The notes beneath the pieces were generated by a model that ran no database searches, was not told the DNA's origin, and was given only the letters and a program-made list of their open reading frames with translations. A stretch of 64,000 bases of DNA from an uncultured Patescibacteria group bacterium. GTDB lineage: Bacteria > Patescibacteriota > Microgenomatia > UBA1400 > PJMF01. A program made the position numbers and the translations under genes. The stretch spans positions 203,523-267,522 of the forward strand of contig CAJQIG010000004.1 in the NCBI GenBank assembly GCA_905478415.1, written 5' to 3'. Positions 4,295 to 47,912 of the stretch are shown piece by piece. The first letter of the stretch is position 1. Every line of letters starts with the position of its first letter.

Positions 4295-4368
4295 GGTCGT
4301 ATAGCTCAGTTGGTTAGAGCGCGCCGTTCACATCGGCGAGGTCTCTGGTTCGAGTCCAGATACGACCA
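4295..4368 (+). tRNA. tRNA-Val (anticodon CAC)
   Basis: Cloverleaf folded by hand. Acceptor GGTCGTA/TACGACC (7 bp), D-arm GCTC-AGTTGGTTA-GAGC, anticodon stem CGCCG/CGGCG with loop TTCACAT, T-arm TCTGG-TTCGAGT-CCAGA, discriminator A. CCA is not encoded. Confidence 0.85.
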
Positions 4369-9783: not shown

Positions 9784-10202
9784 GGGGATGTACTGCTTTG
9801 ACGGAGTATGTTCATTAATATCTGCAGATCTTCTTTGACTAAGAAAGAAGTAAAACAGAGTCAAAACATAATTGCAAATAAAACTGCAAAAGGCATTTTA
9901 GATACTACCACTAATGCATTCGCATCAGTGTTCGGTACTAACTCTGCTCCTGCTTTCATCGCTGCATAAGCTTTGTAACAGGCGTGTATTCTTTTCATCT
10001 CATTGGCGTGAGGGAGTATGCGTAAACCCAGTCAATGTGACAAATAGTTTTCGTTCGTTGAAACTATCATAAGCAAATAGACGAAGATTGTGTCATGAAG
10101 GCTTGTTTGTTTTCCCTCTGACGCAACAACAAGGACAAACTACATCTGTAGATGATATTGGTGCTACTATTTCGGACGCGAGATCATTCCTCGCCATCTC
10201 CA
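9784..10202 (+). ncRNA. ssrA: tmRNA (ssrA), one-piece
   Basis: The 5' end reads GGGGATGTACTGCTTTGACGGAG (compare E. coli GGGGCUGAUUCUGGAUUCGACGGG). The 3' end reads ATTTCGGACGCGAGATCATTCCTCGCCATCTCCACA (compare E. coli AUUUCGGACGCGGGUUCAACUCCCGCCAGCUCCACCA). The 7-bp acceptor GGGGATG/CATCTCC has a G3:U70 alanine identity pair. The T-arm is GCGAG-ATCATTC-CTCGC. An internal open frame ends ...SAPAFIAA-TAA at 9967-9969, typical of a tag peptide. An intrinsic terminator follows. Confidence 0.85.
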
Positions 10203-10212
10203 CAACAATCAA

Positions 10213-40968: not shown

Positions 40969-42192
40969 TTACTTGCCAAATACTTGGCTAACTTTTTCAA
41001 ATCCAGTAATAAGTGTATCAACATCTGCTTTCGTATTATAGATCGCAAAACTCACTCGTGTAGTTGCAATCCAATCGTGAGCTAGATGCAGTGGCATAGT
41101 ACAGTGATGACCAGAGCGAACTGCAATACCTTGACTATCTAAAACCTGTGCCACATCGTGGGCATGGACGCCAGCATATAAAAACGAAACAGAACCAACC
41201 CTATTTGTAAGAGGACCCAAAATTTCTACGCTTGGAATCTGGGCCAACTTCTCGAGTGCATACGCAACTAATGTAGCCTCATGTTGGGCAACAGTTTCCA
41301 TACCAATGTTTGTAAGATACTCGCAAGCAGCAGCTAGTCCAACTGCACTGGCTACATCTGGAGTTCCAGCGGTAAAACGTTCGACTGGATCATCATGAAA
41401 CAGCGTATGATCTGCATGTACTTCGGCAATCATACCGCCTCCAAAAAGCCATGGATGCATCTCGTTTTTATCAAGTAACTCTTGACGAACTAACAAACCG
41501 CCACTGCCCATTGGGCCATACAGTTTGTGCCCGCTAAATGCAAAGAAATCAACTCCCAGTTTTGTAAAATCTACTAGCATATGTGCAACTGCTTGAGCCC
41601 CATCGAGTAACACTCGAGCGCCAACGTTCCGAGCTACCGAGACAACCCTTTGAACATCGAGCACCGTTCCCAATGCATTTGAAACATAAGTAAATGCCAT
41701 CAGCTTTACCTTTTGCGTATGAGACTCTAACCATTCATAATCCAACTCCCCATTTGCGTTCACTGGAACTACTTTCAGCTCAGCCCCGGTCATCTTGCAA
41801 ACCTGCTGCCAAACCACAAAATTAGAGTGATGCTCTAACTGAGAAGTTACAACTACATCACCTTTTGTAAGATTGTGAAGTGCCCAACCATACAGCACAC
41901 CATTGATGGCCTCAGTAGTATTTCTAGTAAGAATTAATTCTTGATTTTTGGCTCCTAAAAAATGAGTAATGGTGTTGCGAGCTTCCTCTAATGCAAGAGT
42001 ACTCTTGTCACTCAAAGAGTGAACACCACGATGCACATTAGCGTTTGACTGCTTATAGTAGTTTGCTATTGCATCAATAACTACATTGGGTTTTTGAGTA
42101 GTAGCAGCGTTATCCAAATAGACAAGTGGTTTACCATGGACTGAAGTTCCCAGTACTGGAAAATCATCTCTGCTGTTTTGTTGAAAAGACAT
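40969..42192 (-). CDS. sufS: Cysteine desulfurase SufS
   Basis: HHSNFVVWQ, SGHKLYGPMGSGGL (PLP lysine), and a C-terminal RSGHHC active-site Cys. Confidence 0.85.
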   Translation of the reverse strand: MSFQQNSRDDFPVLGTSVHGKPLVYLDNAATTQKPNVVIDAIANYYKQSNANVHRGVHSLSDKSTLALEEARNTITHFLGAKNQELILTRNTTEAINGVLYGWALHNLTKGDVVVTSQLEHHSNFVVWQQVCKMTGAELKVVPVNANGELDYEWLESHTQKVKLMAFTYVSNALGTVLDVQRVVSVARNVGARVLLDGAQAVAHMLVDFTKLGVDFFAFSGHKLYGPMGSGGLLVRQELLDKNEMHPWLFGGGMIAEVHADHTLFHDDPVERFTAGTPDVASAVGLAAACEYLTNIGMETVAQHEATLVAYALEKLAQIPSVEILGPLTNRVGSVSFLYAGVHAHDVAQVLDSQGIAVRSGHHCTMPLHLAHDWIATTRVSFAIYNTKADVDTLITGFEKVSQVFGK

Positions 42193-43046: not shown

Positions 43047-43520
43047 TCAATTCAAGACTACAATTGCTGCATTCAAGAGTGAGGCAAAGCTAACCCATGC
43101 AATATAGGGAATAAGCAAATAAAAAGCTAGTTTTGATAGTGGTCGGAATTTTTTCATTGTCAAAACTATAAAAATCCATAAGACAATAATATTTACTAAA
43201 CCTAATAATGGCGACCTGAGTCCAAAAAATGAGAGAGACCAAAGAGTATTTAGTAACAACTGAACAAAGAAGTAGTAACTGGCTACTTGCACCTTTCTCT
43301 TCTTCCAACCCTGGATCCACACGAGAAACCAAGAAACTCCCATTAAAAAATATAATGTTGTCCAAACTGGCCCAAAGAGCCAATTAGGAGGTGAAAAAAA
43401 TGGTTTGTTTAGAAATACATACCAGGAAGAAATTGCCGCTGTGGTAAAAACAGCACCCACTACTCCGGCCAATTCTGACAAGGTAACTGCAAAAAACAAT
43501 TTCGATACTTTTTTTAGCAT
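43047..43520 (-). CDS. tspO: TspO/MBR tryptophan-rich sensory protein
   Basis: Five TM helices. Contains WLFGPVWTTLYFLMGVSWFLVW. Confidence 0.75.
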   Translation of the reverse strand: MLKKVSKLFFAVTLSELAGVVGAVFTTAAISSWYVFLNKPFFSPPNWLFGPVWTTLYFLMGVSWFLVWIQGWKKRKVQVASYYFFVQLLLNTLWSLSFFGLRSPLLGLVNIIVLWIFIVLTMKKFRPLSKLAFYLLIPYIAWVSFASLLNAAIVVLN

Positions 43521-44060: not shown

Positions 44061-46619
44061 TTAGCCAATACTCCCTTCCATTTCGTGATCAATCAGGCGA
44101 TTCATCTCGACTGCATATTCCAACGGAAGTTTACGAACTAAATCTTCGATAAAACCATTCACAATCATTTTACGAGCATTTTCTTCGGTAATGCCGCGGC
44201 TCATTAGGTAGAAGAGCTGGTCATCACCAATTTTTGAAACAGTGGCCTCGTGTTGCACTTCGACTTGCGAGTTGAAAATTTTATCGACTGGGTAGGTATC
44301 AGAACGAGAGTGCCCATCTAGAAGTAATGCATCACAAATAACCGTGTTTTTCGAGTGATGTGCATTTGGACCCACACTTACAAGCCCGCGATAACTAGTC
44401 CGTCCGCCATCTTTACTAATCGACTTTGAAATAATAGTTGAGCTTGTATAGGGAGCTAAATGAATTGCTTTTGATCCAGTATCTTGATGTTGTCCTGCAC
44501 CAGCTAGGGCCATCGAGAGCGTTTCACCGCGGGCACCCTTTCCAGCCAAAATAAATCCAGGGTACTTCATGGTTACTTTTGAACCCATGTTAAAGTCCGT
44601 CCAAATCATCTGGGCATCTTGTTCAACGTACGCTCGTTTAGTAACTAAATTAAAAACATTTTTATACCAATTTTGAACTGTGGTGTATTGGCATGTTGCA
44701 CCTTTTTTAACGAAAATTTCAACAACTGCTGAATGGAGCGAACCACTGCTGAAGTTGGGGGCGGTGCAATTGTGAACTGCGACTCCACCTGCAACATAGC
44801 TTTCGTCATCGTTAACACTAAAGTTATACACAGAGATATTATTCACCGTTTCTGACTCGATTTTTCTCACTGGTGCATATAAGTAACCTTTATCAACAAA
44901 ATATGCTGTTGCTCTTTTCTTATTCCAGATTTTTGGCTGAATCGGTTGACCAACAATTTTTCCAAATGGAATCATGTATTCTCCACCGATGACTAGATTG
45001 TACATTGTTAATCTGTTTGTAGACCCTCTGTCTTGACTGTTTAATGAACTAGCCATACCTAAACGAGCTAGTATCATCCTACCCTGGAATGCTAAAGTTT
45101 TTGAGGTAGTGGAAATTCTAAACATTTCTTTAAAGCCATGTTTAGTCTGCCTTCGATAGTAATTTCCATCACCCTTATACCAAGCTGCTACTAATGAAGA
45201 TTGCTTACCATTAGACTCTTGCAGGACCCATTCTGGGATGGTCTTACTGCTTGAATGTGCACCAAACTGCTCAAAAAATCGACATAACCTAACCGAGCTG
45301 ACTACTACGTTTGTTCCATTATTTTTCTCATGGTGTAACTCCCTAACTCTTGTCTCACCAAAAACAGTGAAGAAAAGTTTTTTAACTTCTTCAATGTAAT
45401 CTCTTTCAGAACTATTGAAGGAAAAGTTTAAGTATGAACCAGCACTAATACTTCCTTCAGCCAGATAATATCCAATTAACTTAAATAGGTCTTTATTACA
45501 AGGAATTTCCAACTTTTCTAACTGCCAACCATATCTACCATTTCCCACCGGAACTTCATATAAAAGCGTATCTTGTACCTGTTCTGTTTGATCTATTGGG
45601 GTACAGACATAGTCACCTTTTTTTAGGTCTTTAACTGGGAGCCACTCACTCTTCCATTCTTTGTTTCGCTCATTCTTGTATTTTCTTTTGACTACCAAGA
45701 ATGGATGTTCTTCTGTTGCTTGTATCGTTTCTCCGGGCTGTCCTGTAACTGAAACAGTAAATAGTTCTCCCGAATAAGGTCTCACTTGAGTGTGGTATAC
45801 AGATTTATAAGTACCAGTATGAGTAAGTACCTTTGATTCTTTGCTAATATCTTCTATTTCCACTAACCCATCACTGGTTGTAATTTGAGTCCCTGCAGTA
45901 AAACATCCTTCAATATAATGCACACTCGCACCTTCATCTACAATAATGAGTGTCCGCTCAAACTGCCCAGCATTCTCAGCATTAATTCTGAAATACGTTT
46001 GCAGTGGCATTTTTACATCTACTCCTTTGGGCACATACACAAACGAACCCCCACTCCAGGCAGCTGTATTGAGAGCTGAATATTTGTTATCACCACTAGG
46101 AATTATTTTTCCAAAGTATTCTTGTACCAATTCTGGATATTTCTTTAAACCTTCATCCATCGATAAGAAAATCACGCCATCTTTTGCCCAGACATCTTTG
46201 AGTGAACCATACACAACTTCGCTATCGTACTGAGCTTTGACACCAGCTAACACGCCGCGCTCAGCTTCAGGAATACCCAGACGCTCAAAGGTTTCTTTGA
46301 CATCAGCGGGGACATCGTCCCAACTTTTTCCTTCACCTTTGCTCGCTTGTAGGTAATAGTGAATTTTATCGAAATGAATAGCAGATAAGTCAGCTCCCCA
46401 AGGAGGGTTTTTCTTAGCCTCAAACTGTGTAAAGGCTTTGAGGCGAAGTTTCAACATCCAATCTGGCTCTGACTTAAGGTGAGAGATTTCTCGCACCACT
46501 CCTTCAGAAATACCAGGCTTAGTAATGTGGGTATAGTCTGAAGTTGGAAAGGCATACCCATGCTCGTAGGCATCGGTGGCTTCAAAGTCGCTGGTAGTTT
46601 TTTGTGCAAATCGAGCCAT
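44061..46619 (-). CDS. sufB: SufB Fe-S cluster assembly protein, interrupted in-frame by an intein
   Basis: The N-extein ends ..ASVHYIEG and the C-extein resumes CTAPNFSSGSLHSAVVEIFV.., which are SufB core motifs. The 379-aa insert starts with CFTAG and ends VHN|C. Confidence 0.85.
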   Translation of the reverse strand: MARFAQKTTSDFEATDAYEHGYAFPTSDYTHITKPGISEGVVREISHLKSEPDWMLKLRLKAFTQFEAKKNPPWGADLSAIHFDKIHYYLQASKGEGKSWDDVPADVKETFERLGIPEAERGVLAGVKAQYDSEVVYGSLKDVWAKDGVIFLSMDEGLKKYPELVQEYFGKIIPSGDNKYSALNTAAWSGGSFVYVPKGVDVKMPLQTYFRINAENAGQFERTLIIVDEGASVHYIEGCFTAGTQITTSDGLVEIEDISKESKVLTHTGTYKSVYHTQVRPYSGELFTVSVTGQPGETIQATEEHPFLVVKRKYKNERNKEWKSEWLPVKDLKKGDYVCTPIDQTEQVQDTLLYEVPVGNGRYGWQLEKLEIPCNKDLFKLIGYYLAEGSISAGSYLNFSFNSSERDYIEEVKKLFFTVFGETRVRELHHEKNNGTNVVVSSVRLCRFFEQFGAHSSSKTIPEWVLQESNGKQSSLVAAWYKGDGNYYRRQTKHGFKEMFRISTTSKTLAFQGRMILARLGMASSLNSQDRGSTNRLTMYNLVIGGEYMIPFGKIVGQPIQPKIWNKKRATAYFVDKGYLYAPVRKIESETVNNISVYNFSVNDDESYVAGGVAVHNCTAPNFSSGSLHSAVVEIFVKKGATCQYTTVQNWYKNVFNLVTKRAYVEQDAQMIWTDFNMGSKVTMKYPGFILAGKGARGETLSMALAGAGQHQDTGSKAIHLAPYTSSTIISKSISKDGGRTSYRGLVSVGPNAHHSKNTVICDALLLDGHSRSDTYPVDKIFNSQVEVQHEATVSKIGDDQLFYLMSRGITEENARKMIVNGFIEDLVRKLPLEYAVEMNRLIDHEMEGSIG
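44769..45905 (-). mobile_element. Intein with LAGLIDADG homing-endonuclease domain inside sufB
   Basis: Block A Cys1 (CFTAGTQITTSDG), TxxH block B (VLTHTGT), LAGLIDADG-like motif LIGYYLAEGSI, and terminal VHN followed by +1 Cys. 379 aa, in frame. Confidence 0.75.
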
Positions 46620-46627
46620 TAAAGAGG

Positions 46628-47122
46628 TTACTCCGAAAATTTTTCTTGTGCATTCCGAAGCATTGGCACAATAAAGTTTTTACCGTAATCAAAATCATAG
46701 TCTCGGGCATCGTCGAATGGAACCCACTCAAACGCTGTATGCTCTTCACTGAGTGTCACTTCAGATTCATCAAAATCAAATGGAAGCTCTGCTACCCAAC
46801 CGGTTAAAACCGTAAACACTTCATTATAAAAAGTAGTATCAAAGTACACCATTGCATCACGATTAAAGTGTCCAGGAACAACTGTTATCCCCGTCTCTTC
46901 TTTTATTTCTCTAGAAATATCTGCCTGATGTAAGCTTGTTGTATTTGCCTGCTGAGTGGTTGGCCACTCTGAATTCCCTCCCGGAAGGTCCCACTTTGAA
47001 GGACGACTGGATGCAGTATCATCACGCTGCAACAATAACACTCTCCCTTTATGAACAACAACTGCTTTCTGTAAGAGTTTTACATTTTCAGTTAATTGAT
47101 GAGGGTTTCGAACTTCTGCCAT
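46628..47122 (-). CDS. NUDIX hydrolase
   Basis: Nudix box REIKEETGITV. Confidence 0.7.
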   Translation of the reverse strand: MAEVRNPHQLTENVKLLQKAVVVHKGRVLLLQRDDTASSRPSKWDLPGGNSEWPTTQQANTTSLHQADISREIKEETGITVVPGHFNRDAMVYFDTTFYNEVFTVLTGWVAELPFDFDESEVTLSEEHTAFEWVPFDDARDYDFDYGKNFIVPMLRNAQEKFSE

Positions 47123-47144: not shown

Positions 47145-47912
47145 TTACGCTGGTGTGACTTCGTTCCAATCTTTATATCCTTCTGCTTCAAGCTTATCAA
47201 CTAAATCTGGTCCACCACTCTTAACAATCTTACCTCTAACCATCACATGGACAAAATCTGGTTTAAGATACTCAAGAATTCGTTTGTAATGTGTAATAAC
47301 TAAGACACCAGTTTTATGCTTTTTGGTGACTTTTGTAACACCGGCAGCTACTTTTTTAATAGCGTCGATATCAAGACCAGAGTCTGTTTCATCCAACACT
47401 GCATAGGTTGGTTCGAGCACTGCCATCTGTAAAATTTCGAGTTGTTTCTTTTCACCACCACTAAAACCTTCGTTTAAACCACGGGTTAGCAGTTCTGGAG
47501 TAATTTTTAGCTCGGCTGCTAATGATTTGAGATGCTTTCGAAAGTCGATCACTTTTTTGAATTGTTTACTCTCATCTTCAGCAAAGCGAGCCTGATGAGC
47601 TTGACGCAAGAAGTTTTGAACTTTAACTCCAGGGACTTCTACAGGATATTGAAATGCTAAAAATAAACCAAGTTGTGCCCGCTCGTCAGGTGAAAGTTCA
47701 AGCAATGGTGTCCCATTCAAAGTAACTTCCCCACCAATGACTTCATAAGCTGGATGGCCAGCTAAAGTTGCGGCTGTGGTCGATTTTCCAGACCCATTTG
47801 GCCCCATAATAGCATGCACTTCTCCAGGCTTCACTGCTAGTGAAATACCTTTAAGAATGACCGTATCTTCAATTGAAACTTTGAGGTTGGAAATGGTGAG
47901 TTGCTGATTCAT
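47145..47912 (-). CDS. sufC: SufC Fe-S assembly ATPase
   Basis: Walker A GPNGSGKST, the ABC signature LNEGFSGGEKK, and a length of 255 aa. Confidence 0.85.
   Translation of the reverse strand: MNQQLTISNLKVSIEDTVILKGISLAVKPGEVHAIMGPNGSGKSTTAATLAGHPAYEVIGGEVTLNGTPLLELSPDERAQLGLFLAFQYPVEVPGVKVQNFLRQAHQARFAEDESKQFKKVIDFRKHLKSLAAELKITPELLTRGLNEGFSGGEKKQLEILQMAVLEPTYAVLDETDSGLDIDAIKKVAAGVTKVTKKHKTGVLVITHYKRILEYLKPDFVHVMVRGKIVKSGGPDLVDKLEAEGYKDWNEVTPA

Follow-up and report, generated by a model that had tools for sequence, protein, structure and literature searches.

Is the insertion that interrupts the sufB gene of an uncultured Patescibacteria bacterium able to splice out of its host protein, and does it still carry the means to move between sufB alleles? 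We examined this question in a 64,000-nucleotide stretch of a Patescibacteria group bacterium (Microgenomatia, UBA1400, PJMF01; GenBank assembly GCA_905478415.1, contig CAJQIG010000004.1, positions 203,523 to 267,522 of the forward strand). We refer to this whole 64-kb stretch as the window, and all coordinates are positions in it unless noted. Inteins typically sit at functional residues of their host proteins, and inteins in SufB (formerly Pps1), a scaffold for iron-sulfur (Fe-S) cluster assembly, have long been known in mycobacteria. A reading made from the DNA sequence alone (the sequence-only reading) had described an intein with a LAGLIDADG homing endonuclease in the SufB encoded here. 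We found that the element is very probably an intein with an intact endonuclease domain, and that relatives in other genomes include full-length, shortened and empty forms of the same site.

The insertion in SufB and its splicing residues

The insert interrupts an otherwise canonical SufB. The sequence-only reading had placed a 379-amino-acid (aa) in-frame insertion at 44769-45905, and these coordinates are exact, corresponding to precursor residues 239-617. That reading was silent on the strand, which is minus. The frames of the plus strand are full of stops across this interval and a plus-strand interpretation was dropped; on the minus strand the 852-codon sufB frame is open throughout. In the translation, the insert starts with Cys (CFTAG) and ends with His-Asn (VAVHN), directly before a +1 Cys, just as described, and is bounded by VHYIEG on one side and CTAPNF on the other. 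The spliced 473-aa product matched the SufB model TIGR01980 with 694.7 bits (cut-off 346.4) in a single stretch covering model positions 12-448 of 448, and the match was split in two stretches when the insert was left in. The score above cut-off, together with the suf context (sufC, a SufD-like open reading frame [ORF] and sufS), identifies the host protein as SufB and bears out the earlier description of the exteins.

Intein-free SufB proteins run straight through the insertion site. A search with the spliced sequence found five intein-free proteins of 473 aa each (96, 91, 91, 90 and 87% identical), all of which read (H/T)Y(I/L)EGCTAPNFSSGS across the site, in agreement with the proposed insertion in a conserved HYIEG^C...TAPN region (here and below, ^ marks a junction). 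The closest empty allele (P0087/L085, at 49-1470 of locus L085; protein identity 96%, DNA identity 84%) reads HYIEGCTAPN. Its DNA, ...CACTATATTGAGGGT^TGCACCGCTCCCAAC..., is colinear with the spliced window gene over 1422/1422 positions with no gap. The alignment of the exteins to these 87-96% identical proteins is free of gaps, and thus the exteins are contiguous once the insert is removed.

The intein splits the scaffold at a functional residue. In an alignment with E. coli SufB (5awf; E 6e-112), Cys+1 corresponds to C254. According to a 2026 preprint on the structure of SufBC2D-SufE (PMC13228346), C254 is the first residue to accept persulfide from SufE, and cluster assembly requires it. A six-frame translation of the window contained no second sufB, the only other match being the 161-aa SufD-like ORF, and no second intein of the same family. 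The only genes for Fe-S assembly seen in the window are SUF genes, and the organism therefore plausibly needs splicing to obtain a functional scaffold. The earlier claim that splicing is required for viability is in this sense reasonable and, on the evidence of these 64 kb, plausible.

By its sequence hallmarks, the insert was confirmed as a class-1 intein, and it would be expected to splice. The agreement lies far outside what chance would produce. All of the Pfam and NCBIfam intein models that matched did so above their curated cut-offs: for the intein alone, Intein_splicing (42.6 bits; cut-off 35.8), Hint_2 (32.2; cut-off 28.4) and intein_Nterm TIGR01445 (32.3; cut-off 24.5; residues 1-71), and for the precursor, intein_Cterm TIGR01443 (18.8; cut-off 15.6). 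The class-1 residues are all present, namely Cys1, T64xxH67 in block B, Asp367 in block F, His378-Asn379 and Cys+1. We aligned 70 inteins that occupy the same site (the window intein and 69 from other genomes, described below), and C1, T64, H67, H378 and N379 were invariant in 70/70. An AlphaFold2 model built with nine homologues had a mean predicted local distance difference test (pLDDT) score of 91.4 and a predicted TM-score (pTM) of 0.89. The best Foldseek matches to this model were the TliVMA intein (E 3e-21), PI-SceI, PI-PkoII and PI-PfuI, all endonuclease-containing inteins.

The insert might instead be a Hint or bacterial-intein-like domain that does not splice, a disrupted pseudogene or a chimeric assembly. 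The best single-sequence match of the N-terminal region in the PDB was in fact a bacterial intein-like domain (2lwy, E 5e-5). Such domains usually lack a +1 nucleophile and are found in variable regions of non-conserved proteins. The insert has Cys+1 and a His-Asn end and lies precisely in frame between contiguous host residues, in an open 852-codon frame. In addition, the identical 852-aa precursor was found on 12 metagenome contigs from different samples (the longest of 658 kb) and is therefore not an assembly artefact, and 69 related loci have the same architecture. These data contradict a non-splicing or artefactual insert, to which we assign almost no weight. We rejected the bacterial-intein-like assignment suggested by the weak single-sequence PDB matches (2lwy and PI-PkoII) on the grounds that Cys+1 and a His-Asn end are present and that the exteins are contiguous; the profile and fold searches that followed gave clear matches to intein endonucleases.

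The endonuclease domain and its conservation

The middle of the intein contains a LAGLIDADG domain with two motifs. The Pfam model LAGLIDADG_3 matched the intein twice, with 49.1 bits (cut-off 22.5). The motif LIGYYLAEGSI, noted in the sequence-only reading, is at intein residues 143-153. A second motif, LVAAWYKGDGN, on which that reading was silent, is at residues 238-248, 95 residues past the first. Among the same-site inteins, E150 and G151 were invariant (70/70), as were G245 and G247, and D246 was conserved in 69/70. A search with the family profile matched PI-PkoII (E 2.3e-12). With Foldseek, the middle of the model superposed on the monomeric double-motif endonucleases I-DmoI (target-normalised TM-score about 0.7) and I-Tsp061I. 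Together, the family hidden Markov model (HMM), the structural model and the Foldseek matches indicate that the domain adopts the predicted duplicated alpha-beta-beta-alpha-beta-beta LAGLIDADG fold.

Strong purifying selection acts on the endonuclease domain, which is clearly not decaying. We compared the ratio of nonsynonymous to synonymous substitution rates (dN/dS) with the nearest relative, locus L005 from a Candidatus Pacebacteria metagenome-assembled genome (MAG; 86% identical); relatives beyond L005 were not used, as their synonymous sites are saturated. We obtained pairwise dN/dS values of 0.045 (endonuclease domain), 0.054 (N-terminal Hint region), 0.051 (N-extein) and 0.014 (C-extein), and these ratios are approximate because dS against L005 is about 1.5 and near saturation.

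We propose that the element has the splicing and homing cycle of a conventional intein. The 852-aa precursor would be translated first. Cys1 would then undergo an N-S acyl shift at Gly-1, assisted by T64 and H67, and the resulting thioester would be attacked by Cys+1 to give a branched intermediate. Cyclisation of Asn379, assisted by His378, would release the intein, and an S-N shift would leave the ligated exteins as a 473-aa SufB in which the native sequence, HYIEG-CTAPN, is restored. The freed 379-aa intein would act as a site-specific endonuclease, with E150 and D246 as active-site residues, and would cut intein-free sufB alleles at the insertion site, after which recombinational repair would copy the intein into the cut allele.

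Alleles in relatives and the surrounding locus

Relatives of the window intein are widespread in two groups of organisms. We counted 474 loci encoding a relative in species-representative genomes. Among the best 80 of these loci, 69 have an uninterrupted intein of 373-394 aa at the identical SufB site, xYxEG^C...HN^C(T/S)AP, a count made with a relaxed junction pattern; the remaining 11 may be truncated at the ends of contigs or differ in their motifs. The bacterial hosts are Patescibacteria, or candidate phyla radiation (CPR), including Pacebacteria, Woesebacteria, Saccharibacteria and Magasanikbacteria, and the window DNA is evidently that of a Pacebacteria-like CPR bacterium. The archaeal hosts belong to DPANN (Woesearchaeota, Aenigmarchaeota, Micrarchaeota, Nanoarchaeota and Iainarchaeum). 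Patescibacteria-like, intein-containing SufB genes come from many MAGs titled uncultured Pseudomonadales, and from others titled Planctomycetales, Methanosarcinales or Methylococcaceae; these labels look unreliable (the doubtful titles concern loci L006, L007, L010-L013, L017, L018, L021 and L037). In the literature searched on inteins in Patescibacteria, CPR or DPANN we found no paper on these SufB inteins, which is not proof that there is none.

Full-length, mini and empty alleles of the site coexist, and a homing element would be expected to show all three of these states. The near relatives L005-L010 have full-length inteins. Mini-inteins of 151-176 aa are present at exactly the same SufB site in six proteins (P0028, P0035, P0046, P0053, P0056 and P0058). 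These retain the splicing regions of the N and C termini (at most 70% identical to those of the window intein) without the LAGLIDADG domain, and look like natural endonuclease-deletion derivatives. Two of them, P0028 and P0035, have mini-inteins of 161-167 aa and exteins that are 81-82% identical to the window SufB. The nearest SufB proteins (P0087-P0091, the five intein-free proteins described above) have empty sites, and the SufB of L005 (about 92% identical) has the intein. This patchy occupancy among near relatives is as expected for an element that is mobile or was recently lost.

We considered whether the intein splices normally and the endonuclease domain no longer supports homing, being kept for another role (for instance, to stabilise the fold needed for splicing, or to bind DNA and leave it uncut), with the intein inherited vertically. 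Many bacterial intein endonucleases are inactive, and this intein is found across many related lineages. The mini-inteins at the same site do without the domain, which is therefore dispensable for splicing. However, the two catalytic acids and the glycines next to them show little or no variation across 70 inteins, the dN/dS of the domain is low, and a SufB that is 96% identical lacks the intein whereas one that is about 92% identical is occupied. The intein also differs from its exteins in base composition, with a G+C content of 37.3% versus about 43%, some 6 points lower (29% versus 37% at third codon positions). On balance, we think it unlikely, although worth keeping in view, that the domain has ceased to home.

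Several points weigh against the interpretation of the element as an intein with an intact homing endonuclease. That interpretation rests on sequence and a structural model, from which we infer both splicing and endonuclease activity. The dN/dS ratios have the uncertainty noted above, and purifying selection indicates a functional domain without thereby establishing homing as its function. Asp367 of block F is present in the window intein, yet it is kept in only 54/70 of the same-site inteins. Lastly, a remote N-extein histidine (His-38) that is reported to aid N-terminal cleavage and splicing of the Mycobacterium tuberculosis (Mtu) SufB intein is replaced by Asp in the window protein (codon 46020-46022, minus strand). 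With these points taken into account, we still consider an intein with an intact endonuclease domain very probable.

More distant relatives of the intein (27-36% identity; P0022, P0023, P0026, P0032, P0048, P0054, P0057 and P0059) immediately precede cysteines that serve as Fe-S ligands in other proteins. Those in NuoI/HycF-like ferredoxins lie within the CxxCxxCxxxCP motif, and P0023 has two inteins. In IscU/NifU-like proteins they are found at ...KTFG^CGAAIA and ...GNPS^CGD. The lineage seems to have a preference for Fe-S proteins and their reactive cysteines.

The features of the locus are listed in Table 1. The SufD-like ORF, at 161 aa, is far below the normal SufD size of about 420 aa. 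The Nudix hydrolase and TspO/MBR genes are unusual passengers of a suf operon, and the gene order is the same on other contigs (L001-L004). An Rfam scan of the window matched a full-length tmRNA (9784-10205, plus strand; 95.7 bits) and a tRNA (4295-4368, plus strand) and nothing else, with no RNA match in the window that bears on the sufB locus.

Table 1. Features of the sufB locus and of the intein, in window coordinates.
Feature	Position	Strand	Evidence or remark
sufC (ABC ATPase), same operon, upstream of sufB	47145..47912	minus	PF00005
Nudix hydrolase gene	46628..47122	minus	between sufC and sufB
sufB precursor ORF (N-extein + intein + C-extein)	44061..46619	minus	852 aa + stop codon; TIGR01980 676.6 bits, two stretches
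N-extein, aa 1-238, ends ...VHYIEG (Gly-1, His-5)	45906..46619	minus	E. coli SufB alignment up to G253
Intein, 379 aa (precursor aa 239-617)	44769..45905	minus	Cys1 codon 45903-45905; His378-Asn379 codons 44769-44774
N-terminal splicing (Hint) region, about intein aa 1-110; block A Cys1, block B T64-E-E-H67	45576..45905	minus	TIGR01445; beta-rich in model
LAGLIDADG homing endonuclease domain, about intein aa 111-335	44901..45575	minus	Pfam LAGLIDADG_3, two stretches
LAGLIDADG motif 1 (block C), LIGYYLAEG, predicted catalytic Glu150	45453..45479	minus	helix 138-150 of model
LAGLIDADG motif 2 (block E), LVAAWYKGDG, predicted catalytic Asp246	45165..45194	minus	helix 232-246 of model
C-terminal splicing region, intein aa 336-379; blocks F and G: VYNFSVNDDESYVAGGVAVHN	44769..44900	minus	TIGR01443
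C-extein, aa 618-852 (235 aa), starts Cys+1 in CTAPNF	44064..44768	minus	Cys+1 codon 44766-44768
Short SufD-like ORF, 161 aa	43574..44059	minus	SUFBD_core only; start 1 base past sufB stop codon
TspO/MBR membrane protein gene	43047..43520	minus	downstream of short sufD
sufS-like cysteine desulfurase	40969..42192	minus	Aminotran_5

Comparison with known inteins

Annotators should treat the 852-aa ORF as encoding a 473-aa SufB together with a 379-aa intein and not as an aberrant fusion. The full-length, mini and empty alleles among close relatives provide a neat illustration of the homing cycle in nature. The element is real but ordinary, and would not surprise a specialist.

The predicted architecture of the window intein is that of solved intein endonucleases. 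PI-SceI (1vde), TliVMA (7qss/7qsu), PI-PkoII (2cw7) and PI-PfuI (1dq3) share with it a Hint domain and a monomeric double-LAGLIDADG endonuclease, and the window model matched them with Foldseek E values of 3e-21 to 2e-14 and query-normalised TM-scores of 0.54-0.69. In contrast, these proteins have other hosts (V-ATPase, DNA polymerase and ribonucleotide reductase), are only 12-16% identical, and are larger than the window intein. Closer in terms of host protein is PI-MgaI, the LAGLIDADG endonuclease of the Mycobacterium gastri Pps1 (SufB) intein, which reportedly cuts the intein-less pps1 allele and is said to occupy a different Pps1/SufB site.

The closest known counterpart is the M. tuberculosis SufB intein (Pps1, Rv1461), which is in the same host protein at the identical insertion point, HY(I/V)EG^C...HN^CTAP. 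The published Mtu junctions are ...YVHYVEG^CLPAGELITT...YGFAVHN^CTAPIYKSDS (PMC8891592, supplementary Table S2), and the same work describes a 235-aa C-extein, Gly-1, His-5 and a block B His at position 67, demonstrates splicing biochemically, and notes that some mycobacterial SufB inteins are at other sites (PMC8891592). The window protein agrees in each of these local features (the 235-aa C-extein, Gly-1, His-5 and block B His67), as well as in Cys1, His-Asn and Cys+1. By BLASTP, residues 1-379 of the window intein aligned with residues 1-354 of the Mtu intein (28% identity, E 6e-33), the Mtu sequence compared being 354 aa long and not 359 aa, with a few residues lost in text extraction from the PDF. 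Both LAGLIDADG motifs are also in the Mtu intein (LAGYYLAEGH and NGDGN), and both inteins are full-length with an endonuclease domain. The two differ in size (379 versus 359 aa), in host (a CPR bacterium versus an actinobacterium) and in splicing, which has been demonstrated biochemically for the Mtu intein and is predicted for the window intein.

The kinship with the Mtu intein raises the question of whether the window intein is also a conditional switch. The SufB intein family has been studied as an M. tuberculosis drug target and stress sensor, and a redox-conditional role has reportedly been proposed for the Mtu SufB intein. In the window protein, splicing might be halted in a reversible way by oxidative or nitrosative stress or by sulfur status, with a Cys1-Cys+1 disulfide as one example, and this would control how much active SufB is available. 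Besides the shared site and family, cysteine serves as the nucleophile at both junctions, and the one at +1 is the persulfide acceptor. Conversely, the nearest relatives have intein-free alleles, meaning that the host does without the intein, and the Mtu-specific helper His-38 is absent (Asp). Such a switch would be compatible with an intact homing intein; we regard it as rather improbable, somewhat more so than the loss of homing discussed above. A broader possibility is that the lineage is more than a sufB parasite, being a cross-domain mobile element, found in CPR bacteria as well as in DPANN archaea, that is specialised on reactive cysteines of Fe-S proteins, with the Cys1 and Cys+1 chemistry making splicing, and hence Fe-S biogenesis, depend on the redox or sulfur status of these ultra-small symbionts. 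We consider this combination speculative and distinctly less likely than a switch at SufB itself.

The same insertion point and the end-to-end alignment place the window element in the Mtu-type SufB intein family. Judged by its sequence, it is a divergent, newly found member of that family, neither a new kind of intein nor one at a new site, and the family thereby gains an environmental and evidently well-maintained member alongside the intein of M. tuberculosis.

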